A DNA stretch of 64,000 nt from positions 72,936-136,935 of IMG/VR virus record IMGVR_UViG_3300032038_000011; one strand, written 5' to 3'. The translations under genes and the position numbers were made by a program. This document shows, in pieces, positions 2,285-51,098 of the stretch (position 1 is the first letter of the stretch; each line of letters opens with the position of its first letter). The DNA is from a virus (Duplodnaviria > Caudoviricetes). Below the pieces are notes generated by a model. It made no database searches. It was not told the DNA's origin and was given only the letters and a program-made list of their open reading frames with translations.

Positions 2285-2316
2285 GTAAATTAGACTGCCC
2301 GGATAGTCTAATTTAC
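2285..2316. repeat. 32-bp dyad site S7 (perfect 12-bp arms)
   Basis: GTAAATTAGACT-GCCCGGAT-AGTCTAATTTAC. Confidence 0.85.
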
Positions 2317-2352
2317 ACAGGCTTAATGTTAGTGGTGACTAACTACTATGTT

Positions 2353-2387
2353 AAAAAAAAGAAAAGAGGGCGTTAAGCCCTCTTTTC
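2353..2387 (-). terminator. Terminator of the GC-rich operon
   Basis: GAAAAGAGGGC / GCCCTCTTTTC stem, U8 tail on the minus strand. Confidence 0.8.
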
Positions 2388-2624
2388 GTGGTGGCGCTCG
2401 ATGTAGCGCAGGCTGTGCAGGCAATCTTTGACGGCCTCGCGCGCGGTCTCCGCTACCCACAAAAACGTGGTCTTGACTTCCCACTCGGTCAGGTCAGTAA
2501 CCTCGATGGTCCATCCCATCGCGGTCTTATTCATCGAAAGTTCAAAGTGTCCGCTCGCGCTGTCGTTGCCGTGGTCGAAAGTGTAATGGTTGGCGCTGAT
2601 CTTCTGGATGTAAAGGTTCTTCAT
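2373..2624 (-). CDS. Hypothetical protein, 83 aa (GC-rich operon)
   Basis: AAGGAGGAG RBS, GC3-rich codons. Confidence 0.8.
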   Translation of the reverse strand: MKNLYIQKISANHYTFDHGNDSASGHFELSMNKTAMGWTIEVTDLTEWEVKTTFLWVAETAREAVKDCLHSLRYIERHHEKRA

Positions 2625-2674
2625 GATTGTCTCCTCCTTAATTTTAGGTCGTGGGAGGGCTTGCGCCCTCCCGA

Positions 2675-2869
2675 TTATTCGCGGTAGTCGTCGCGGCCGC
2701 CGTTCTTTTTGACGGCCCAGTTCTTTGCGCCTCGGGCAGTTTTGTAGACGCCCTTGTGTTCCCAGTGGTACTGGGTGCCCTCGCCCACGTGGTACTTGCC
2801 ATCGCGGTCAGGCTCGGTGTCGTAGGTGTAATAGTGGTATTTGCTGCCGGTGTAGCCTGCCTTCATCAT
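2675..2869 (-). CDS. Hypothetical protein, 64 aa (GC-rich operon)
   Basis: GAGGAGG RBS; flanked by hairpins. Confidence 0.75.
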   Translation of the reverse strand: MMKAGYTGSKYHYYTYDTEPDRDGKYHVGEGTQYHWEHKGVYKTARGAKNWAVKKNGGRDDYRE

Positions 2870-2897
2870 TGTAACTTCCTCCTCTCAGGGACGGGCA

Positions 2898-3281
2898 TTA
2901 AGCCCGTCCCGTGCTCCTCAAGTATTCCTGCCAGACTCGCTCCACCTCGGCGAGGTAGTCATTGACTACCTTGCCGGTGAAGCGCTGAGCTGCGTAGTAC
3001 AACTCGCGCAGGTCGTAGTGGTGGAACGCTTCCAACACGTCCCTGCCCTCGTCGGACTGGTTCAGATCGTAGTCCCTCAGGCTGGGAGTCAAGTCCTCGG
3101 GATGGCCGTAGTAGACCATGACCGCGAGGCGCTTCTCGGGTTCGAACTCGACGTGGCCGAAGCCGCAGTTCTCAGCCTCGGTATCGAGGTCGAAGTTCAT
3201 GGAAAACTGGGCCATGCAGAACTGCTCGTCAAAGAGCAGGCCGTACTCGGTAACGGTGGTGTTGTAGTTGCAGATCATCAT
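2898..3281 (-). CDS. Acidic hypothetical protein, 127 aa (GC-rich operon)
   Basis: AAGGAGGT RBS before MMICNYNT at 3281. Confidence 0.8.
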   Translation of the reverse strand: MMICNYNTTVTEYGLLFDEQFCMAQFSMNFDLDTEAENCGFGHVEFEPEKRLAVMVYYGHPEDLTPSLRDYDLNQSDEGRDVLEAFHHYDLRELYYAAQRFTGKVVNDYLAEVERVWQEYLRSTGRA

Positions 3282-3336
3282 TGTAGTAACCTCCTTGTAT
3301 TTGGTCGTTATTGTAAAGCTGAGGGGCTTGCGCCCC

Positions 3337-3456
3337 TCAGTGGTTGCGGCCATGAATTACCTCATTCATGCCTTTGATTTCTACCTCGTTCGCCTTGAAC
3401 TGTTTTTCAAGGCTCCGCAGGTCCAGCACCATAGCGATTATAAACAAAGTCAACAT
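3337..3456 (-). CDS. Small hypothetical peptide, 39 aa (not in the ORF track)
   Basis: AAGGAGGT RBS; MLTLFIIAMVLDLRSLEKQFKANEVEIKGMNEVIHGRNH*. Confidence 0.6.
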   Translation of the reverse strand: MLTLFIIAMVLDLRSLEKQFKANEVEIKGMNEVIHGRNH

Positions 3457-3493
3457 GTTTTTACCTCCTTCCAAAGGGTGAGGGCTTGCGCCC

Positions 3494-4066
3494 TCACTCC
3501 TTCATATCGCGGTCGATCTCGCTGGGGCAGTAGGCCGTGATCCGACCGCCGAGGCCCTTGACCTCGTCGCGGATCTTGACCTCGTTGCCGTCGGCGTCGG
3601 TGATGATGGTTACGCCGTCGATCTGAACTCGGTTCAGGCCGCCGACCCACTTCGCGCCGATGGTCTTGCAAACCACCTTCTCGAAGGTGCGCGCCCTCGG
3701 GCCGGCGCAGGGGCTGGGGTCGAGCGGCAGGTCCGAGTAGGTCCGGAACTTCTGCTCGAGCTGGCGAACCGTGATCCGGTTGCCGAAGGTCTTGCGGAAC
3801 GCGGTCTCGCTGATCTTGCGAACCTTCAACACGTTGTCGCTGATCACAAGGAAGCCGGTCTCGAGGGCGCGGTCGTTGCCAACAACCTCGATCAGGGTCT
3901 GGCGGCTGACGCAAGCCAGAACCAACTTGCGGGTCGCGCCGTGAACGCCTGCGCCGTCGGCGGTCGTCATGGCGAACCAATAACGCTCGGCGTGGCGCGG
4001 GTCGTTCAGGTAGTTCAACGCGGTGAGCTTCGCGGCGGCGGCGATGGTGGGATCGTACTTCTTCAT
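3494..4066 (-). CDS. Putative PD-(D/E)xK nuclease-fold protein, 190 aa
   Basis: AAGGAGGT RBS before MKKYDPT at 4066; C-terminal half has FEKVV...QIDG...DEVKG spacing typical of the restriction-endonuclease fold (function uncertain). Confidence 0.55.
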   Translation of the reverse strand: MKKYDPTIAAAAKLTALNYLNDPRHAERYWFAMTTADGAGVHGATRKLVLACVSRQTLIEVVGNDRALETGFLVISDNVLKVRKISETAFRKTFGNRITVRQLEQKFRTYSDLPLDPSPCAGPRARTFEKVVCKTIGAKWVGGLNRVQIDGVTIITDADGNEVKIRDEVKGLGGRITAYCPSEIDRDMKE

Positions 4067-4367
4067 GGGGTTTACCTCCTTTTTTGTGGGTCGTTGTGTT
4101 TTGTGCTGGTTGGTCGTGCGGTCGGCGGTCGGGTTCAGTTGCTGCTCGCCTGTCGGGTTCATCACTGCTCGGCGTTCACGGCTCTCACGTGCGCTGGTCT
4201 GGGCAGCTTCCTACTCCCGTCGGGGTCCTTGCGCGTCGCGTCTGGCAGCCGCGACTGGCGGTGGGCTGTTCAATTTTCAAGGTTCGCCGCTTGCTCGACC
4301 TGCTGGCCGTCCAGCCCGGCGGGTTCCTCGGGCTGCGGGGTTCTCGCTCATCCCCCCAACAGCTATG

Positions 4368-4395
4368 ATTATACTCGCCCCAACGAAAAAAGCAA
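4368..4395 (-). promoter_or_regulatory. Promoter of the GC-rich operon
   Basis: TTGCTT-16 bp-TATAAT with an upstream A-tract (UP-like). Confidence 0.6.
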
Positions 4396-4551
4396 GCATT
4401 TTTTTTTATTCATCAATATTCATAGCAAAGGGGGGGGTTATACATAGGATTCTGAATAATTATGCAATTTTTCGGCACCCACCCTCCCCATTTTCCACAC
4501 CCCAGTTCAAAATAAAACACCCTCGGCTCCAAAGCATAAAATCCCAAATAC

Positions 4552-17071: not shown

Positions 17072-18121
17072 ATGGCTGTTAATATTTTTGAAAAATACGG
17101 TATTAAGGAAGTTGCCAATGTTTATTTTGAAGCTCTAGAAGACGATCCTAAGTCTAACGTTTATAAGGGCGACATTGTTCTATTCCTAGATACCCTAAAG
17201 GTTTCTACTATTGAAACAACTGCTGAGACCACTGATGCTACTGGTGGTTGGGGCAATCCAAAGCTAATTTCTTGGGACTATGGTAAGGAAATTACCATTA
17301 CTCTAGAAGATGCTCTAATTTCTCTAGAGTCTCTACGTTTCATGCTTGGTGGTGCTATTCATCGCTCTGGTGTAAATGAAGAGTCTGTAATTGTACGTTA
17401 TAATGAGGAAATTGAAGTTAAGGAAGATGGCAAGATTTCTATTCCTATTGACCATATTACAGGTAAGAAGTTTGCTCGTCCTATTGTTGGTACATCTGAT
17501 CATCCAATTCGTCTAATTAATTTAGGCGGTGGTAAGGATAGTGCAACTGCAGGCACTCGAACACAAATTACTAATGGAACTTTAGAAGATAATACTTCTA
17601 TTACTTTCTATAATAAAGCTATGGGCGTTGGTAGTATTTCTGGCACTGGGGATGACGCTCAAAAAATTGGTGTTGCTCCTAAAAAGGGTGATCGTATTCG
17701 TATTTTCTGGGAAGAGGAAGTAAAAGAAGCAAAAGATAAGGATTATGCTGTTGAAGTAACTATTTCTCCTGATACTTTCCCAGGTACTTATCGTGTTGTT
17801 GGCGATACTTTCATGCGTTCTCAGGCTACTGGTAAGGACGAAGCATTCCAGTTTGTAATTGGTAAGGCTAAGGTTCAGTCTAATGTAACCATTACTCTAG
17901 AAGCTGAAGGCGATCCTTCTACTTTCGAAATGACTCTAACTGTTCTACGTAGTGATGGAGATAATGGTCAAGAAATGATGAAGCTAATCCGTTATGGTAC
18001 TGCTGCTGCTGATGCTGCTAATGGTGGCGATGACATTGGTTCTCTAACTGCTCCTACAGGCGGCCAGGGCGACAATCAAGGCGGCCAGGGCGACAATCAA
18101 GGTGGCCAAACCGGTAATTAA
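17072..18121 (+). CDS. Major tail (tube) protein
   Basis: AGGAGGT RBS; high-expression codon bias; GGWGN hairpin and EGDPS motifs; followed by a terminator. Confidence 0.8.
   Translation: MAVNIFEKYGIKEVANVYFEALEDDPKSNVYKGDIVLFLDTLKVSTIETTAETTDATGGWGNPKLISWDYGKEITITLEDALISLESLRFMLGGAIHRSGVNEESVIVRYNEEIEVKEDGKISIPIDHITGKKFARPIVGTSDHPIRLINLGGGKDSATAGTRTQITNGTLEDNTSITFYNKAMGVGSISGTGDDAQKIGVAPKKGDRIRIFWEEEVKEAKDKDYAVEVTISPDTFPGTYRVVGDTFMRSQATGKDEAFQFVIGKAKVQSNVTITLEAEGDPSTFEMTLTVLRSDGDNGQEMMKLIRYGTAAADAANGGDDIGSLTAPTGGQGDNQGGQGDNQGGQTGN
18059..18109 (+). repeat. 21-bp tandem repeat (GGQGDNQ) at the tube C-terminus
   Basis: GGCGGCCAGGGCGACAATCAA twice plus a partial third copy. Confidence 0.85.
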
Positions 18122-18177: not shown

Positions 18178-19068
18178 GTGGTGAATCAGATGCTTGATCA
18201 GTATTTTGGCATTAAAGAACTTTCAGAAGTTGTTTTAAAAGCCCACGACCCTATGCAATTTGGTTCAAGATACCTTGAAGCGGGAGAGCCCGTATTATAT
18301 TTTGAAAAAGTAAATATGGCTGTACTAAATGAACGACAATCTACAATTATGGCACGAGGAGGTTGGTCCAATATGCCTCGTGTTATCTGGGAGGATCGTT
18401 CAGAAGTACAATTCTCCCTTACTGAAGGTGTTATGTCTTCAATTAGTATGGGAATTTTATTAAGTGCTTCTGTTTCAGAAGCTAAGCAAAACAAAGAATC
18501 TCTTTTAGTACCTAAAAGAGAAGGTCCATTTGAATTAGAAGATGGATGTATTTATATAACACATCAACCTGTGTTATATCCTGAGAAAAAAGTTTTTATT
18601 TATCAATACGAGCGAGGAGTCGCTCAGAAAAAAGTTTTTGGGCAATTAGATCCAGAAAATAATAAATATAATCCTTTTTTAGACGAAACTGAAATATGTA
18701 TTAAAGTGTTTGAAGATAAAGAAAGGAAAAAAGAAGCGGACGCCACAAAAGAATATATTGTGGATTATTATTATGAGTATAATGATGAAGCATTGCTTTA
18801 TACAATACAAAAAGAAAGATTTAATGGATTGTTCACTCTTGAGGGTAAGTTTTACTCCAAGGATGAAAACGATGGCTTAAATTATACAAATTTGATTTAT
18901 ATGCCAAAAGTAAGAGTCGTGAGTGATATAAACTTACGCTTGGGAGAAAGGGCTGATCCAACTACGTCCGTATTTAATATTATTGGATTACCAGAAAACG
19001 TAGGCGGTAATAGAAAGGGTATGATTTTGGAGATTACGCGTTTAAGCGAAGATATAGACGCTGAATGA
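18178..19068 (+). CDS. Minor tail-tube paralogue
   Basis: FGIKEL, RGGWSN and ADPTTS motifs collinear with the major tube protein; start may be 18190. Confidence 0.7.
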   Translation: MVNQMLDQYFGIKELSEVVLKAHDPMQFGSRYLEAGEPVLYFEKVNMAVLNERQSTIMARGGWSNMPRVIWEDRSEVQFSLTEGVMSSISMGILLSASVSEAKQNKESLLVPKREGPFELEDGCIYITHQPVLYPEKKVFIYQYERGVAQKKVFGQLDPENNKYNPFLDETEICIKVFEDKERKKEADATKEYIVDYYYEYNDEALLYTIQKERFNGLFTLEGKFYSKDENDGLNYTNLIYMPKVRVVSDINLRLGERADPTTSVFNIIGLPENVGGNRKGMILEITRLSEDIDAE

Positions 19069-45004: not shown

Positions 45005-45814
45005 TTACTTACCTGTGCTACCAAATCCGCCTTCACCACGTTCAGTCGTAGGAAGAATATCAACTAGTACTGGTTTAAATCGTTCTACACGCTCAACCCA
45101 TACTTGTGCGATTCGGTCGCCAGCTTTAATTTCATAATCAGAATCAGAAATGTTATCATAAAGTACGCCAATTTCTCCACGGTAATCTGCGTCAATAATT
45201 CCAATAGAGTTGGAAAGACGTAGACCAGTCTTTGCTCCGATGCTTGAACGAGGAGCAATTTTTGCTACCCAACCTTCTGGTAAAGCAATCTTTAATCCAG
45301 TAGGAACTTTATTAGAGATAGAGTGTGCAGGAATTATGGTGTCTTTAGAAGCGTAAATATCCGCACAAGCATCAGTATCGTGAGCGTAAGTTGGCATTTG
45401 GCCGCCATCTTCTAATTTAACTGGAAGCTCAAAAGCATAAGAATGATAACGTGAAAAAGCTTCATCAAAAACATCATAGAAGAAATCAAAAGTCGCATCA
45501 AGTAAGGCTCTCTTATTAGGAGAAGGCTCTAATTCATTAATTGCTTCTTGAATTGCGTTTTTATTTTGAGCGACAAAATTTGCGGCTTCCGCACGAGTTA
45601 GATTATCATCTTCAAAGCCTTTAAGAACGTCTTTAATTGAGTCTTCTCTAATTCGAGGAGTTAAAGCTCCTTTAATCATTCCAGAAATAATTTCTACAGA
45701 ATCTTCATTTAAGTTTTCTTCTGGAATAGTCATAATTTGTTCAATCATATCTAGTAAAGGGCGAGCCTGCTCTTCCATAGAAAGGCCATCCGCAAGATCC
45801 ATAAAATTTGCCAT
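45005..45814 (-). CDS. dut: Trimeric dUTPase with N-terminal extension
   Basis: Motifs ACADI, PRSS, GIIDADYRGE, GDRIAQ and RGEGGFGSTG. Confidence 0.92.
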   Translation of the reverse strand: MANFMDLADGLSMEEQARPLLDMIEQIMTIPEENLNEDSVEIISGMIKGALTPRIREDSIKDVLKGFEDDNLTRAEAANFVAQNKNAIQEAINELEPSPNKRALLDATFDFFYDVFDEAFSRYHSYAFELPVKLEDGGQMPTYAHDTDACADIYASKDTIIPAHSISNKVPTGLKIALPEGWVAKIAPRSSIGAKTGLRLSNSIGIIDADYRGEIGVLYDNISDSDYEIKAGDRIAQVWVERVERFKPVLVDILPTTERGEGGFGSTGK

Positions 45815-45815
45815 A

Positions 45816-46034
45816 TTACATTACCTCGTATTCTTTAGTCACACTTACAAGCCAAAACTCATCAATAATTTCGTGAGTTTTTCTATCCTTCTTAGACTTG
45901 TAAGTCGTGTTATATTTTGTAAGAATATAACCATCTACAGATTGATTATTCTTATATTCTTCAATAGTTTCCATTGCCAGCTGTTCACTGTCTACCTTAA
46001 ATACTAATGTTTCAGTTTTCAGTTGCTTGTTCAT
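45816..46034 (-). CDS. Hypothetical protein
   Basis: AAGGAG RBS before MNKQLK. Confidence 0.65.
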   Translation of the reverse strand: MNKQLKTETLVFKVDSEQLAMETIEEYKNNQSVDGYILTKYNTTYKSKKDRKTHEIIDEFWLVSVTKEYEVM

Positions 46035-46497
46035 GATTTTCATTCTCCTTCTTTTCATTTAGCTCTCTTAGCTGTTGAATTAAATTTATATAATTAAGTT
46101 TTTTAGCTGTCTCGGAAATTGTCCCAAATTGCGCGCGACCAGTTTTTCCTAATTTCTTAGCAAAAGCTCGTCTTTCAGCACGATTGTGAAATTGTGGTTG
46201 TTGAATTTTTTCTTCTATTTTTTCAGTAACTGCTTCTGTAATTTTAGAAGAATTATCTAATGTTTCATTATATAAATCTGTTAAAACAGATGAAGCAGCC
46301 AAATCTATTTTATAATTTTTTATTGGATAAACAGAGGAAGAAACACACGCAGTTTCTGCTGCTGTGCACTCATCATAAGGTTTTGTTTCTATATCTATTG
46401 GAGTAATATACCCGGACGTCGTTATTCCTTCGGGTAACTCAGGAACTTCTGTTTTAATTTTTTCTCCATCAGAATTAGTTATTGTTACAATACTCAT
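46012..46497 (-). CDS. Hypothetical protein (NRAERR motif)
   Basis: GGAG RBS before MSIVTI; overlapping operon arrangement. Confidence 0.65.
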   Translation of the reverse strand: MSIVTITNSDGEKIKTEVPELPEGITTSGYITPIDIETKPYDECTAAETACVSSSVYPIKNYKIDLAASSVLTDLYNETLDNSSKITEAVTEKIEEKIQQPQFHNRAERRAFAKKLGKTGRAQFGTISETAKKLNYINLIQQLRELNEKKENENHEQATEN

Positions 46498-46796
46498 ACT
46501 AAACTCTCCACTACTGAGCAAATATGCTCATATTCTTTTTCATTATCTATTTCAATAATATGAAAAATATGATTTTGTCCAGTAGGCTTTAATGGAATAT
46601 TTATTTCGTAATTTTCATAAATGCTAAAAATCATTTTTCGAGCGAGGCCTAAATCATAGTCTGTGGTTTCTTTTTCTGCATTAATAACTAAACCACTAGT
46701 TAGCGCATAAAACACAAATAATTTATCTTTTTCGTTTAGAGCAAGAATACAAATATATTTTGAATTACCCTGATATTTTAAAACTTCTTTAATCAT
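46494..46796 (-). CDS. Hypothetical protein
   Basis: Coupled ORF; likely start MIKEVL. Confidence 0.6.
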   Translation of the reverse strand: MIKEVLKYQGNSKYICILALNEKDKLFVFYALTSGLVINAEKETTDYDLGLARKMIFSIYENYEINIPLKPTGQNHIFHIIEIDNEKEYEHICSVVESLV

Positions 46797-47130
46797 TAGA
46801 CTCTCTCCAGGTTTCATAAAAAGTTAAATCAGTTTTATTATAATCTCCTTTTATGATAACATGTTTAAATACTCGTGCAGGAATATCATAAATTTTTTCA
46901 CCATTTTCTGTAAAAACTTTTTTAACTCCAATCAAAACATATGATTCATAGGGTTTTGCTATTAGCATATTTAAATCATTAATATTTAAATTTGTAGTAA
47001 CTAAATGTAAAATACATAATTCTTTACTATCCCAAATAAAATCATATGAAAGTAAATTTTCAAATTTAATGGTATAAATTATTTTCCCTTTTTCCATTAA
47101 TTTAAGTGTTGCAATTGTTTGAAAATTCAT
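46789..47130 (-). CDS. Hypothetical protein, possibly a divergent tube-fold protein
   Basis: GAGGT RBS; beta-rich pattern loosely like its upstream neighbour. Confidence 0.55.
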   Translation of the reverse strand: MNFQTIATLKLMEKGKIIYTIKFENLLSYDFIWDSKELCILHLVTTNLNINDLNMLIAKPYESYVLIGVKKVFTENGEKIYDIPARVFKHVIIKGDYNKTDLTFYETWRESND

Positions 47131-47134
47131 ATTA

Positions 47135-47605
47135 TTACCTCATATTCATTAGCTTTTCGCGTTCTCTTGGCTTAAACTTTCTTTTTTTAATAGAAAAGGT
47201 TAAAAACCATTCAGTAGGATCTCCTTCCGGAGTTAACTCATATTGTACTTTTAATTTATTAAAAGATCTTTCTTCACATTTATAAAAATGGTCTTTCCCT
47301 GTTTTTTGACTTCTCCAAATTTCATAAGTTGTAAGTCCGTAATGATGGCAACCTTGTCGTAAAATTTCTAACATTTCTGGGCTTAATATTGCTACTCGTA
47401 AAATAATTTTCCTATCATTACCAGGATTTTTAAATTCTTCATAATATCCTGATAAAGTATCTATAAAGAAAGAATTTAATACATGATTTTCATTATCATA
47501 TAAATTTAACTGAATATTAGGAACTTCTTTTTCTCCAAAACCATATTTTGTTTTCTCTAAGTATATTTCACGAACATCTTCTTCGCTCATTTCTTTATAA
47601 CTCAT
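47135..47605 (-). CDS. Minimal tail-tube-like protein
   Basis: Motifs GEKEVPNI, FIDTL, RSQKTGKD and EGDP collinear with the major tail protein. Confidence 0.65.
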   Translation of the reverse strand: MSYKEMSEEDVREIYLEKTKYGFGEKEVPNIQLNLYDNENHVLNSFFIDTLSGYYEEFKNPGNDRKIILRVAILSPEMLEILRQGCHHYGLTTYEIWRSQKTGKDHFYKCEERSFNKLKVQYELTPEGDPTEWFLTFSIKKRKFKPREREKLMNMR

Positions 47606-48621
47606 TAACCTTCTCCACCCTTAGTTTTATTAAAACCAAATTCATTTGATTTGAAAAAATCTATATAATATTTTTCTAATTCATTTAACTGCTCTTTATC
47701 ACAATACATAATAACTTCAATAGTCCAATTCCAAAATCCTGTTTTCCAAATTTCATGATGAACAGCTTGGTCAGCAATTGTTTTAATTCCAATAGAACTT
47801 TTAAAATGGTCTGTAATTCGTTTCTTTATATTAGTACTTTTACCAATATAACATTTTCCACTATCTATATTAGTGATTTTATAAATGCCAGGTTTATCTT
47901 CTATACAAGCGCGTTTAAAAGTTTCATCAATATACGGTTTAACATATTCTGCCCAAACAAGTTTATTAATAATATCTGGGTGTTGAACTTTTTGAGAAAC
48001 AGTTGTGATTAGAAAATTTATATCATCTTTATATTCATCAGGAACTTGTATTGTATAATATAAACGCTCCTGTAAATTTTTTTCATATTGCCTTAAAGGT
48101 TCTAGTAAAGCTTCATATCTCTGTTGTTGATACAAAGTGTCTGCGAGAATATTATTTTGGCTTTTTCTCGCGGCTTCAATAACATCTGCAACTTCTTGTT
48201 TAAATTTATGTTCTTTTTCTAATTCTTCTCGTTCAAGTTTAATATACTGATTTTTTAAATTTTCTTCTTTTTCACGCCACAATCGTTCAAAATCTGTATC
48301 CATTTCGGACTGCCGTGTATTCTTTTGATGCTCAAAATATATATTTAAATCCTCTGTTTTTTTATTTAATTCTTCTCGGTATTTATTTTGAACGGTAAGG
48401 ATTTTATCTTGATAATCTTCAATTAAATCTTTCTGAGAACAAATATCTTTTTGTAAATCTTTTTTTCGATTTGATAATTGTTCAAATTGTCGTTTCGCAT
48501 CTTCGACTAAAAGATTTAAGTTATTTAATTCTTTATAATCGGTTTGAACTTTTTCACTAAGTTTAATGCTTAAAATAATAATAATTATAATTAATATTCC
48601 TATAATACCATATAATACCAT
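47605..48621 (-). CDS. Membrane-anchored coiled-coil protein with C-terminal GIY-YIG nuclease domain
   Basis: N-terminal poly-Ile TM helix, long coiled coil, GIYKITN...YIGKS...R...E...N motifs. Confidence 0.8.
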   Translation of the reverse strand: MVLYGIIGILIIIIIILSIKLSEKVQTDYKELNNLNLLVEDAKRQFEQLSNRKKDLQKDICSQKDLIEDYQDKILTVQNKYREELNKKTEDLNIYFEHQKNTRQSEMDTDFERLWREKEENLKNQYIKLEREELEKEHKFKQEVADVIEAARKSQNNILADTLYQQQRYEALLEPLRQYEKNLQERLYYTIQVPDEYKDDINFLITTVSQKVQHPDIINKLVWAEYVKPYIDETFKRACIEDKPGIYKITNIDSGKCYIGKSTNIKKRITDHFKSSIGIKTIADQAVHHEIWKTGFWNWTIEVIMYCDKEQLNELEKYYIDFFKSNEFGFNKTKGGEG

Positions 48622-48653
48622 CTACATCACAACCACTCCTTTACTTTATAATA

Positions 48654-48682
48654 ATTATAACACGGTTTTTTAAAAAAGTCAA
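48654..48682 (-). promoter_or_regulatory. Sigma-A promoter
   Basis: TTGACT-17 bp-TATAAT with TGn extension. Confidence 0.8.
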
Positions 48683-48691
48683 ATATTAAAA

Positions 48692-48718
48692 GAAAAAGAG
48701 CAGGCATTAAGCCTGCTC
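48692..48718 (-). terminator. Intrinsic terminator
   Basis: GAGCAGGC / GCCTGCTC with U tail on the minus strand. Confidence 0.7.
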
Positions 48719-48859
48719 GTTTTTAAATTTATCAGAATCACAATAAATAGTTCTATAATCTATGCAATCTTCAGCATAATCAATATTATCTTCATCATAC
48801 ATAAAATCCCAAGGGCACTCTTTTCGCTCAACTTTCCAACGGCATTCATTACAAGTCAT
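48707..48859 (-). CDS. Small Cys-rich protein, 50 aa
   Basis: MTCNECRW...CP...C starts immediately after the RNR stop. Confidence 0.5.
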   Translation of the reverse strand: MTCNECRWKVERKECPWDFMYDEDNIDYAEDCIDYRTIYCDSDKFKNEQA

Positions 48860-48860
48860 A

Positions 48861-51098
48861 TTAACCGCACTTACTCCATCCACAACTACTACAAATAACA
48901 CAACCGCCTTCTCTACGAATGGGTTCGCCGCATTCAGGACATTTTTCATTCGTCTCAATTTCAATAGCTTTCTTACTTTTTACAATATTTTTTTGAGGTT
49001 TTTCTTCTTCTCCGTAATAAAAAGCCTGTAAAGTTTTAGCCATAATATCTGGACAAGATAAACCATCTACAGCTTTACTAGTTTTCGCACAAGCTGGACA
49101 ATAAATACCTTTTAATTGGTCAATAATTTCAGTTACTTTTACTCCGGAACGCAGACCGACAGAAATTAATCTATTTACTGCCGCAGTATTAGCTTTACAA
49201 ATGCCGCCTTTGCTACTTTCAATAAAAGTTTCGACTAAATTACCTTCATCATCACAATTAACTGTAATATATAAAGTTCCGCAAGCACAATGACGACAAT
49301 ATGTATTACCGTGCGTAGTACCTAAAGTTTTGCGAGAAACTGGAGTAATGGAATCAAAAATTACCGGGAAATCTTCTGGATGGATTTCTTTTACTGAATT
49401 TTTCTTTTCCGTAGTTAGTATTCCTGCACGACGACAATTATTTCTAAAAACAGTAATGCCTTTTAAACCTTTTTCCCAAGCTTCCATATAAATATTCATA
49501 ACATCTTCTACAGTTGCTGTTTCAGGAAGATTTACTGTTGAAGAAATTGAAGCGTCAATATACTTTTGCCAAGTAGCTTGCATATCTATTCTTTGATGGT
49601 AATCTAATTCTCCTGCGGTAATAAAATAATCTGGAAGTTGGCTATCATCAGAAAGATGATTTTTCTCCATATATTTTTTTACAATAGGCGTATAAACTTT
49701 ATATTCAACATCTTTTCCATAAAGACTTTCAGTTTTACGAGTATAATAATTCGCAAAAATTGGTTCAATACCGCCACTAATACCTAACATAGTACTTAAA
49801 GTTCCAGTTGGTGCAATTGTTAATAATTGACTATTAGCAAGGCCATTTCTTGCAATAATTGCACGAACTTTATCATTTAAATTATCAAAAAAGAAATCTG
49901 ATTGATTTAATTTATGAAAATCATATTTAGGAAAAGTTCCTTTTTGAGCAGCTAAATTACAAGAAGCATATGCAGCAAAATTTAATATATCATGAGCGAT
50001 AGTATCACATAATTCAAGAGATTCTTTACTACCATAACGTATACCCATTTTAATTAACATATCTGCAATTCCCATTACTCCAAGGCCAATTTGTCGCCAA
50101 TTTTTTACACTTTCTTGCTGTTCTGCTAATGGATGTAAAGGAAGTCCTTCATCTAAAACATCATTTAAAGCTTCTACTGCGATATATACTGTTTCTGCTA
50201 AATCATCAAAATCAAAATAAATTGAACCCGCGGGACTTGTTTTTACAAATTCAGATAAATTAATTGAGCCAAGTAAACAACTTCCTCCTGCTGGAAGTGG
50301 TTCTTCCGCACACGGATTTGTTCCAGCATATTCAAAATCTTCAAAGCCAGAAAGTAAATTATGTTTACTTATTCTATCCCAGAATAACATTCCAGGCTCA
50401 CCCATATCCCAATTATTATAAGCCATTTTTTTAAATAATTCATAAGCATCAATAGTTTTATTAATTACTTCTTCAGTTTCTTCTCTTGTAAAAGATAAAG
50501 TATATGGTTTATGATTTTTTGCTGCTTTCATAAAATCATCGAAAACTTTAATAGAAGTATTGGCTTTTGTAACTCTATTTAAATCACTTTTAATATCTAT
50601 AAAATCTTCAATATCTGGATGATTACAATTCATAGATAACATTAAAGCACCGCGTCTGCCATTTTGACTAATAAGCCCTGTAACCATAGAATATAAATCC
50701 ATAAATGATACTGCTCCGGAGCTTTCTTTCGCCGCATTTCGAACTCTTGCCCCTTTAGGAGCGAGTTTTGATAAATCTACTCCAACTCCGCCACCATATG
50801 AATAAGTTCTTGCGAGACTTTTTGCACAATCAAAAATAGATTCAAGATTATCTTCTGGAGGAGAAACTACATAACAATTAGAATATGTAATTTTTGTTGA
50901 ATCTGCAAGGCCGCGATTTGCTAAAATTCGTCCGCCAAATAAAAATTTCTTATTACGAATTATTTCTTTAATATTTTCTTTATTGCCACTTATTCTATTT
51001 AACCAAGTTTCAAAATCTTCACCATTATGCTGATATTTTCTTTCCCAAATAGAAATACCAATTTCATTATCTTTACCAAGCCATTCTTGAATAGTCAT
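48861..51098 (-). CDS. nrdJ: Class II (adenosylcobalamin-dependent) ribonucleotide reductase
   Basis: NCYV, TNPCAE, SCLLGSINL and TIAPTGT motifs; C-terminal TSCPD domain and zinc ribbon; no beta subunit nearby. Confidence 0.88.
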   Translation of the reverse strand: MTIQEWLGKDNEIGISIWERKYQHNGEDFETWLNRISGNKENIKEIIRNKKFLFGGRILANRGLADSTKITYSNCYVVSPPEDNLESIFDCAKSLARTYSYGGGVGVDLSKLAPKGARVRNAAKESSGAVSFMDLYSMVTGLISQNGRRGALMLSMNCNHPDIEDFIDIKSDLNRVTKANTSIKVFDDFMKAAKNHKPYTLSFTREETEEVINKTIDAYELFKKMAYNNWDMGEPGMLFWDRISKHNLLSGFEDFEYAGTNPCAEEPLPAGGSCLLGSINLSEFVKTSPAGSIYFDFDDLAETVYIAVEALNDVLDEGLPLHPLAEQQESVKNWRQIGLGVMGIADMLIKMGIRYGSKESLELCDTIAHDILNFAAYASCNLAAQKGTFPKYDFHKLNQSDFFFDNLNDKVRAIIARNGLANSQLLTIAPTGTLSTMLGISGGIEPIFANYYTRKTESLYGKDVEYKVYTPIVKKYMEKNHLSDDSQLPDYFITAGELDYHQRIDMQATWQKYIDASISSTVNLPETATVEDVMNIYMEAWEKGLKGITVFRNNCRRAGILTTEKKNSVKEIHPEDFPVIFDSITPVSRKTLGTTHGNTYCRHCACGTLYITVNCDDEGNLVETFIESSKGGICKANTAAVNRLISVGLRSGVKVTEIIDQLKGIYCPACAKTSKAVDGLSCPDIMAKTLQAFYYGEEEKPQKNIVKSKKAIEIETNEKCPECGEPIRREGGCVICSSCGWSKCG

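Follow-up and report, generated by a model that had tools for sequence, protein, structure and literature searches.

The window analysed here, a stretch of 64,000 nucleotides of a tailed phage genome, carries on its minus strand a small ORF that we call mini-tube 1, for its resemblance to the tail tube protein of the same phage. It lies between a gene for a GIY-YIG protein and a second small gene, mini-tube 2. The elements of this locus are, in the order of transcription:

48698..48718, minus strand: GC-rich hairpin with a T run after it, resembling a terminator; lies between NrdD and the promoter
48654..48682, minus strand: putative promoter of the sigma-70/sigma-A type, TTGACT-17-TATAAT with a TG, 11 of 12 matches
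47605..48621, minus strand: GIY-YIG gene, first of the operon, 338 aa (Pfam GIY-YIG 2e-10, residues 244-325)
47613..47616, minus strand: ribosome-binding site GGAG, 7 nt 5' of the ATG of mini-tube 1, where the GIY-YIG gene is about to end
47135..47605, minus strand: mini-tube 1 (P0001), 156 aa, with its ATG at 47605
46789..47130, minus strand: mini-tube 2 (P0163), 113 aa, in tandem with mini-tube 1 and directly downstream of it

The promoter was identified as a match to a consensus pattern and is the best such site within 45500-49200. The earlier note on this DNA had placed mini-tube 1 under a sigma-A promoter. A near-consensus site does exist, but it is located upstream of the GIY-YIG gene and not directly before the mini-tube ORF. 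Since this is the sole strong promoter-like site nearby, the two mini-tube genes are taken as genes 2 and 3 of an operon, which the terminator-like hairpin directly before the promoter sets apart from the NrdD gene. Mini-tube 1 is predicted to be translationally coupled to the GIY-YIG gene, the stop codon of which overlaps the mini-tube start in the sequence TAATG. Beyond the two mini-tubes the operon continues with small ORFs and then with dUTPase, RuvC-like and DUF1617 genes. The assignment of mini-tube 1 to the early, or replication, arm of the genome is supported, and the mini-tube is presumably made early, before the true tube protein.

The GIY-YIG protein has a hydrophobic N-terminal segment, a charged, coiled-coil-like region of approximately 200 residues and a C-terminal nuclease domain, and from its hydrophobic N-terminus the nuclease is predicted to be anchored in the membrane. 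Such an architecture is unusual for a phage GIY-YIG protein; the nuclease is conserved in every relative examined. The region upstream of this gene differs among the phages. In relatives, a gene for the NrdG activase (radical SAM, 158-168 aa) is found between NrdD and the GIY-YIG gene; here, the segment 48621-48861 holds the terminator, the promoter and an 85-aa ORF overlapping the end of NrdD, with no NrdG, and the NrdD activase seems to be missing at this position. The reductase of the relatives switches between the NrdD type and the Ribonuc_red_lgC type, while the junction between the GIY-YIG gene and the mini-tube is unchanged. In the relatives L003, L015 and L119, insertions of the HNH, LAGLIDADG or intein-like kind split the genes for ribonucleotide reductase and the DNA polymerase III alpha subunit.

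The protein that mini-tube 1 resembles is encoded in the tail module, which lies on the other strand of the window:

17072..18121, plus strand: tail tube protein (P0002), 349 aa (phrog_2729 3e-53; PF27173 on homologues)
18178..19068, plus strand: second full-length tube paralogue, 296 aa, 22% identical to P0002
19065..37052, plus strand: tape measure gene, 5995 aa (PhageMin_Tail PF10145 4e-31, residues 591-799)

In the gene order of siphovirus tails, the two genes before the tape measure gene hold the position of the tube; the tape measure gene is followed here by ORFs of 491 and 1756 residues. PHROG 2729 is described as 'virion structural protein', and PF27173, precomputed on homologues of P0002, is named YomU_Tube in the ESM Atlas. 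When a profile of 54 sequences of the tube family was compared with the sequences in the PDB, it matched the tail tube protein of SPR/SPbeta (E 8e-6). GenBank relatives of P0002, with 32-37% identity, are annotated as major tail or tail tube proteins and belong to the Bacillus Tsamsa, PBC2 and FADO groups, the Lactococcus 949 group and Brevibacillus Sundance. The label of major tail protein that had been given to 17072-18121 is thus correct, by PF27173, the SPR match, gene order and the GenBank annotations. The D1 core of P0002 is split by an inserted domain, D2, at about residues 100-231, and the profile of distant tube homologues likewise consists of two conserved pieces (~3-100 and ~215-305) with a variable middle. 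A D1/D2 layout of that kind has been described for the SPR tube (PMC10981675).

The second tube paralogue is kept beside P0002 throughout the clade. The tandem tube paralogues (17072-18121 and 18178-19068; loci L018-L094) sit where genes for tail assembly chaperones usually are. Outside the PhageMin_Tail segment, the 5995-residue tape measure protein has no Pfam match. Tape measure proteins usually scale with the tail at about 1.5 A of length per residue; if the protein sets the length here, the tail would approach 0.9 um, far above typical siphoviruses. The 5' part of the window also contains a 2.2-kb island (about 2300-4450) with 50-64% GC in a phage of 30% GC. Signatures of a Shine-Dalgarno sequence followed by ATG are found on its reverse strand, for example at 2617-2652, 2863-2883, 3275-3295 and 4059-4094, which suggests several minus-strand genes of foreign composition; searches of the island (about 2300-4450) gave no Pfam, Rfam or tRNA match.

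The similarity between mini-tube 1 and the tube protein was first recorded as five collinear motif pairs, and all five, as well as the ORF itself, were confirmed against the 349-residue protein of 17072-18121. With mini-tube 1 given first, the pairs are FGEKEVPNI and YGIKEVANV, FFIDTL and LFLDTL, IILRVAILSPEML and ITLEDALISLESL, RSQKTGKD and RSQATGKD, and EGDPTEWFLTF and EGDPSTFEMTL. The distances reported with them are also accurate: from RSQ to EGDP there are 29 residues in mini-tube 1 and 30 in the tube, the stretch between the second and third blocks is 15 residues in mini-tube 1 and 33 in the tube, and the two genes are on opposite strands with 29.0 kb between them. A sixth block, absent from that description, was found by global hhalign alignment and pairs the C-terminal EKLMNMR of mini-tube 1 with EMMKLIR in the last strand of the tube. 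By BLASTP, the C-terminal block of mini-tube 1 matches the tube with E 1e-5.

Comparison of the two families as profiles extended this result. For the C-terminal block alone, hhalign gave 92-93% probability. When the profiles were used in halves, N-terminal half against N-terminal half gave P 6e-6 and C-terminal half against C-terminal half gave P 2e-9, whereas four mismatched control comparisons, the D2 insert among them, gave P values of 0.06-0.66. With D2 cut from the tube profile, the alignment ran through 119 collinear columns (97%, E 1e-10). A mini-tube HMM also matches the tube gene in the genome of this phage (E 1.7e-4) and, with E 5e-6 to 5e-3, in the genomes of 22 related phages. Because both halves match separately, the cross controls fail and the match with D2 excised is strong, the likeness is beyond chance. 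These comparisons identify mini-tube 1 as homologous in sequence to the D1 core of PF27173 YomU_Tube and argue firmly that it is a genuine paralogue, though diverged, of its own phage's YomU-type tube protein and consists of D1 only.

The predicted structure agrees with this assignment. AlphaFold2, run on mini-tube 1 alone with the family alignment, returned a tube/Hcp fold (pLDDT 83.4, pTM 0.71), modelled as an N-terminal helix, a sandwich of two sheets and a single flanking helix. This combination of a beta-sandwich and a flanking helix, which can be superposed on solved tube proteins, places mini-tube 1 in the tail tube/Hcp fold superfamily. Foldseek scores for the model were weak but pointed in the same direction; the closest cluster in the ESM Atlas, 90% of which is PF27173, is YomU_Tube (TM 0.66, 134 residues, rmsd 3.2). 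The predicted fold is thus not unrelated to that of tube proteins. A model of the full tube protein, built from an alignment of 22 sequences, had a pLDDT of about 50-60 in D1 and was too poor for superposition.

In composition, mini-tube 1 is a reduced tube protein with some features of its own. The central insertion domain is absent, as the earlier note had it: D2 is missing and D1 only is present. The N-terminal strand, the tip of the RSQxTGKD hairpin, the EGDP loop and the last strand are retained. To these are added a helical N-terminal extension of ~20 aa, a short beta2-beta3 hairpin and a basic C-terminal tail with the motif of the last tube strand; the mini-tube family is acidic, like tube D1. 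In the tube, the beta2-beta3 hairpin is long and carries the near-invariant sequence GGxGNPKLIxWDYGKE; the 33-residue stretch includes the residues that are most invariant in the tube family, A56, G58, G59, L65, W68, D69, Y70 and G71. This motif is absent from mini-tube 1, which thus does not have the long hairpin of YomU_Tube proteins (loop1 of the SPR tube), and all 34 aligned members of the mini-tube family (34/34) have a short, non-conserved hairpin, variable in sequence and length.

To define this family, 1.8 billion representative sequences were searched with phmmer. Of the 32 matches, 30 were proteins of 101-186 residues with 25-40% identity to mini-tube 1; P0154 and P0159 were discarded as larger, unrelated repeat proteins sharing a WxDxSTGxxE-like word. 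The family alignment conserves YGxKEVPNI, YYEE, WRSxxTGKDE and EGDPxxW. Searches of Pfam, PHROGs and PADLOC gave no match for mini-tube 1. The GTDB representative genomes yielded no relative, and neither did tblastn of P0001, P0151 and P0133 against 50,697 GenBank phage records or megablast of the mini-tube region. Mini-tube 2 belongs to the same group of proteins by its match to the mini-tube family (HMM E 7.5e-9; hhalign 94% over 101 columns) and is more degenerate, without the YGxKEVPN, WRSxxTGKD and EGDP signatures; it has 45 homologous clusters with 56-98% identity. The next ORF, 46494-46817, was considered as a third, decayed tube domain and gave no signal, with a family alignment that included a few non-homologous ORFs.

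When the relatives were compared, the position following the GIY-YIG gene proved to be a variable slot, which may be empty or filled by a mini-tube of type 1 or type 2; both types are present here. This polymorphism and the second mini-tube gene are new, and neither was part of the earlier note. Nine related metagenomic loci have a type-1 mini-tube directly next to the GIY-YIG gene, and in two others (L117 and L119) the slot is filled by type 2 alone. The slot is empty in the complete relatives G001, G003, G004 and G007 (157-184 kb), in which the GIY-YIG protein is 64-74% identical and its gene is coupled straight to a homologue of ORF 46494-46817; these four genomes keep both full-length tube genes. 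Whether or not a mini-tube is present, the slot follows a gene for an orthologue of the GIY-YIG protein (52-76% identity) in all relatives examined. In a search of 53 IMG/VR relatives, a set that includes many fragments, a mini-tube turned up only in G028, where it has the corresponding place, on the strand opposite the tube gene and about 27 kb away from it. Over longer distances, identity is 26-37% for mini-tubes and 45-67% for the RuvC-like and dUTPase genes that flank them; judged by these sequences, the mini-tube family is fast-diverging. It should be noted that the GIY-YIG homologue at L111, a locus of the 120-kb relative G011 with direct terminal repeats, has 10 in-frame TAG codons, which suggests reassignment of TAG in the more distant subclade of G011.

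The gene of a virion tube protein would be expected in the tail module, ahead of the tape measure gene, and in every member phage; neither is the case for the mini-tube. Because the slot is variable and complete relatives are without the gene, the mini-tube gene is regarded as an accessory, non-virion gene. Two simple explanations were rejected: an ordinary or essential virion part, since complete relatives with both full-length tube genes are without a mini-tube, and an obligate partner or subunit of the GIY-YIG nuclease, since complete relatives have the nuclease and no mini-tube. A decaying pseudogene is unlikely because, over about 30 clusters, the reading frames are uninterrupted, their size is constant and motifs are conserved.

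The mechanism that we place first, tentatively and by analogy with a known defence trigger, is that the mini-tube acts as a decoy: without polymerising or activating, it would engage a host sensor that detects the monomeric tube protein. The mini-tube would be produced ahead of the true tube protein and, as a look-alike of monomeric tube D1 that would neither polymerise nor activate, could occupy an immune sensor of tube monomers, which might be DSR2-like or an Avs-like sensor that reads the fold. The real tube protein, made late, would then meet a blocked sensor, and abortive infection would not be triggered. Beyond the point that this operon expresses a D1-only paralogue of the tube, we infer every step.

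The analogy is with the tube protein of SPR/SPbeta, which triggers DSR2; the sensor binds the monomeric tube via D1 only, and D2 is invisible in the complex (PMC10981675). Replacement of loop1 of the SPR tube (Q34-K57) by a linker leaves a stable complex with DSR2, and the protein so altered gives no NADase activation and no toxicity (PMC10981675). Avs sensors, according to a review, bind tail tube proteins by their fold (PMC13728456). In a HMMER alignment, hairpin residues 48-72 of P0002 align on loop1 of the SPR tube (Q34-K57). A decoy for host sensors had been among the roles first proposed for mini-tube 1, and by this analogy it gained indirect support: the tube protein is in the YomU/SPR family that triggers DSR2, and the hairpin deleted from mini-tube 1 would be the loop1 of SPR.

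The decoy was ranked first because the mini-tube is an accessory, fast-evolving, acidic, D1-only copy without the hairpin and has a host-type promoter. It is also favoured because the mini-tube shares the architecture of the engineered SPR variant, D1 with a short loop1, and because of its expression context, as a second gene behind a near-consensus host-type promoter in an operon with dUTPase and nucleotide-metabolism genes. Other observations count against it. The motifs kept could equally be contacts between tube subunits, or of the tube with the tape measure protein or a chaperone, which would fit a role in assembly. Mini-tube 2 is without the shared motifs yet well conserved, so the motifs are not the whole story. 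The SPR tube is only distantly related to P0002, so the DSR2 precedent is an analogy, and DSAD1, the known natural inhibitor of DSR2, is reported to be without likeness to known structures and acts allosterically at another place. In the open-access literature, no tube-derived decoy or early-expressed tube paralogue was found to be reported. It is conceivable, if doubtful, that mini-tubes represent a trigger-mimic class of anti-defence proteins, in which a truncated, early, D1-only duplicate of the sensed protein, without the activating hairpin, diversifies in a dedicated slot.

The observation on mini-tube 2 leads to the next explanation, which we consider rather unlikely: the tube fold may have been exapted for an unrelated role, such as a Hcp-like ring or a chaperone for an early protein, or the mini-tube may be a slowly decaying duplicate with little function. 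Mini-tube 2 is without any tube signature and is still 56-98% identical across 45 clusters, the mini-tube gene is dispensable in most relatives, and, as the matches of the fold search illustrate, tube-fold proteins have been recruited to many roles. However, intact ORFs of constant size with conserved motifs, in 30 clusters diverged to about 25% identity, point to selection on a specific function, and mini-tube 1 retains exactly the motifs of the tube itself, which argues that its role is tied to tube recognition.

Retention of those motifs would also fit a mini-tube that interfered with or controlled tail assembly, by joining the tube, the initiator or the complex of tape measure protein and chaperone and halting growth; we regard this as unlikely. 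These motifs hardly vary among tube proteins, in keeping with contacts made during assembly. The hairpin that was deleted varies least of all tube elements and, in tubes of the YSD1 type, builds the inner barrel. It is similarly improbable that, in detail, one tube-type contact face is kept and the long hairpin is not donated, so that the mini-tube poisons the tails of a co-infecting related phage or delays those of its own phage. Phage proteins that block tails do exist, Tab acting on the tape measure protein and Tai on the central fibre (PMC10884400, PMC11364771), and the sporadic, diversifying distribution of mini-tubes would suit conflict between phages too. Against this, the motifs match those of the phage's own tube, which should poison its own tails, and no candidate antidote gene was identified. 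The known blockers act from prophages, but neither Phage_integrase nor Resolvase has a match in the 137-kb record (80% complete), in which no lysogeny genes were found, and several relatives have direct terminal repeats. The earlier proposal that the mini-tube poisons competitor tails is possible in itself, but a prophage role like that of Tab or Tai is unsupported in a 137-kb record without integrase or resolvase. The accompanying proposal, that it caps and times the tails of its own phage, is weakened: most complete relatives build tails without a mini-tube, so it is no required length or timing device, and the gene, which complete close relatives do not have, is in a host-type-promoter operon with nucleotide-metabolism genes and not with late genes.

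The least probable of the functional explanations makes the mini-tube an adaptor or regulator of the coupled GIY-YIG nuclease. The TAATG overlap and an abutting arrangement at every mini-tube locus, across 26-89% identity, agree with such a partnership, as do the hydrophobic N-terminus and long coiled-coil-like region of the nuclease. In one form of it, itself very unlikely, the mini-tube would dock at the membrane on the end of the tube or tape measure protein of a superinfecting relative and the incoming DNA would be cut, resulting in superinfection exclusion. However, the nuclease is 64-74% identical in complete relatives without a mini-tube, where it is coupled to the next small gene, and the whole arm is syntenic, so that adjacency is weak evidence.

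The decoy is of interest because sensors such as DSR2 and Avs recognise conserved structural proteins of phages, which are hard for the phages to change. If the decoy mechanism is true, a truncated copy of the trigger that binds without activating would be a simple and general escape route, and since the engineered equivalent, the SPR tube without loop1, behaves in this way in vitro, the idea is directly testable. Even if it is wrong, mini-tubes are a previously unannotated family of about 30 representative clusters with a second branch, in which the core of a virion protein has been duplicated, stripped of its polymerisation elements and relocated to an operon of early genes. It offers a way to study how the tube fold is recruited to new roles, and a mini-tube may serve as a natural reagent for controlling tube polymerisation.

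Among known systems, Tab and Tai are, like the mini-tube, small proteins found sporadically in fixed genomic slots; they are encoded by mobile elements and act on tail assembly. Tab targets the tape measure protein and has no similarity to known proteins, Tai targets the central tail fibre, and for neither has descent from a tail protein been described; the mini-tube would be unrelated to them in origin. Lysogens express both of them, paired with counter-defence genes; in the 137-kb record of the mini-tube phage, which is 80% complete, neither lysogeny genes nor a partner gene were found. DSAD1, by which SPbeta inhibits DSR2, is a small protein too and blocks a defence that senses the tube, which is the role proposed for the mini-tube. 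It acts allosterically at another site of DSR2 and is reported to have no structural similarity to known structures (PMC10981675), and this described fold, without known structural neighbours, would set the mini-tube apart from the DSAD1 family. No DSAD1 chain was present among the PDB sequence matches of mini-tube 1 (E up to 1) or in its fold-search lists, an absence that is no proof of difference. With the YomU tubes (PF27173; the SPbeta/SPR tube, PDB 8k98 and 9jgh; P0002), mini-tube 1 shares homology throughout the D1 core and the fold, but it is without D2, has a hairpin of 15 rather than 33 residues, lies outside the tail module and is absent from most relatives; identity within the mini-tube family is 25-40%, in contrast to >65% among close tube homologues. 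The nearest parallel to the proposed function is the engineered SPR tube in which loop1 (Q34-K57) was replaced by a linker (PMC10981675). That protein is a laboratory mutant of a distant tube and still carries D2, whereas the mini-tube, for which sensor binding is hypothetical, is a separate gene in which the corresponding truncation occurs naturally.
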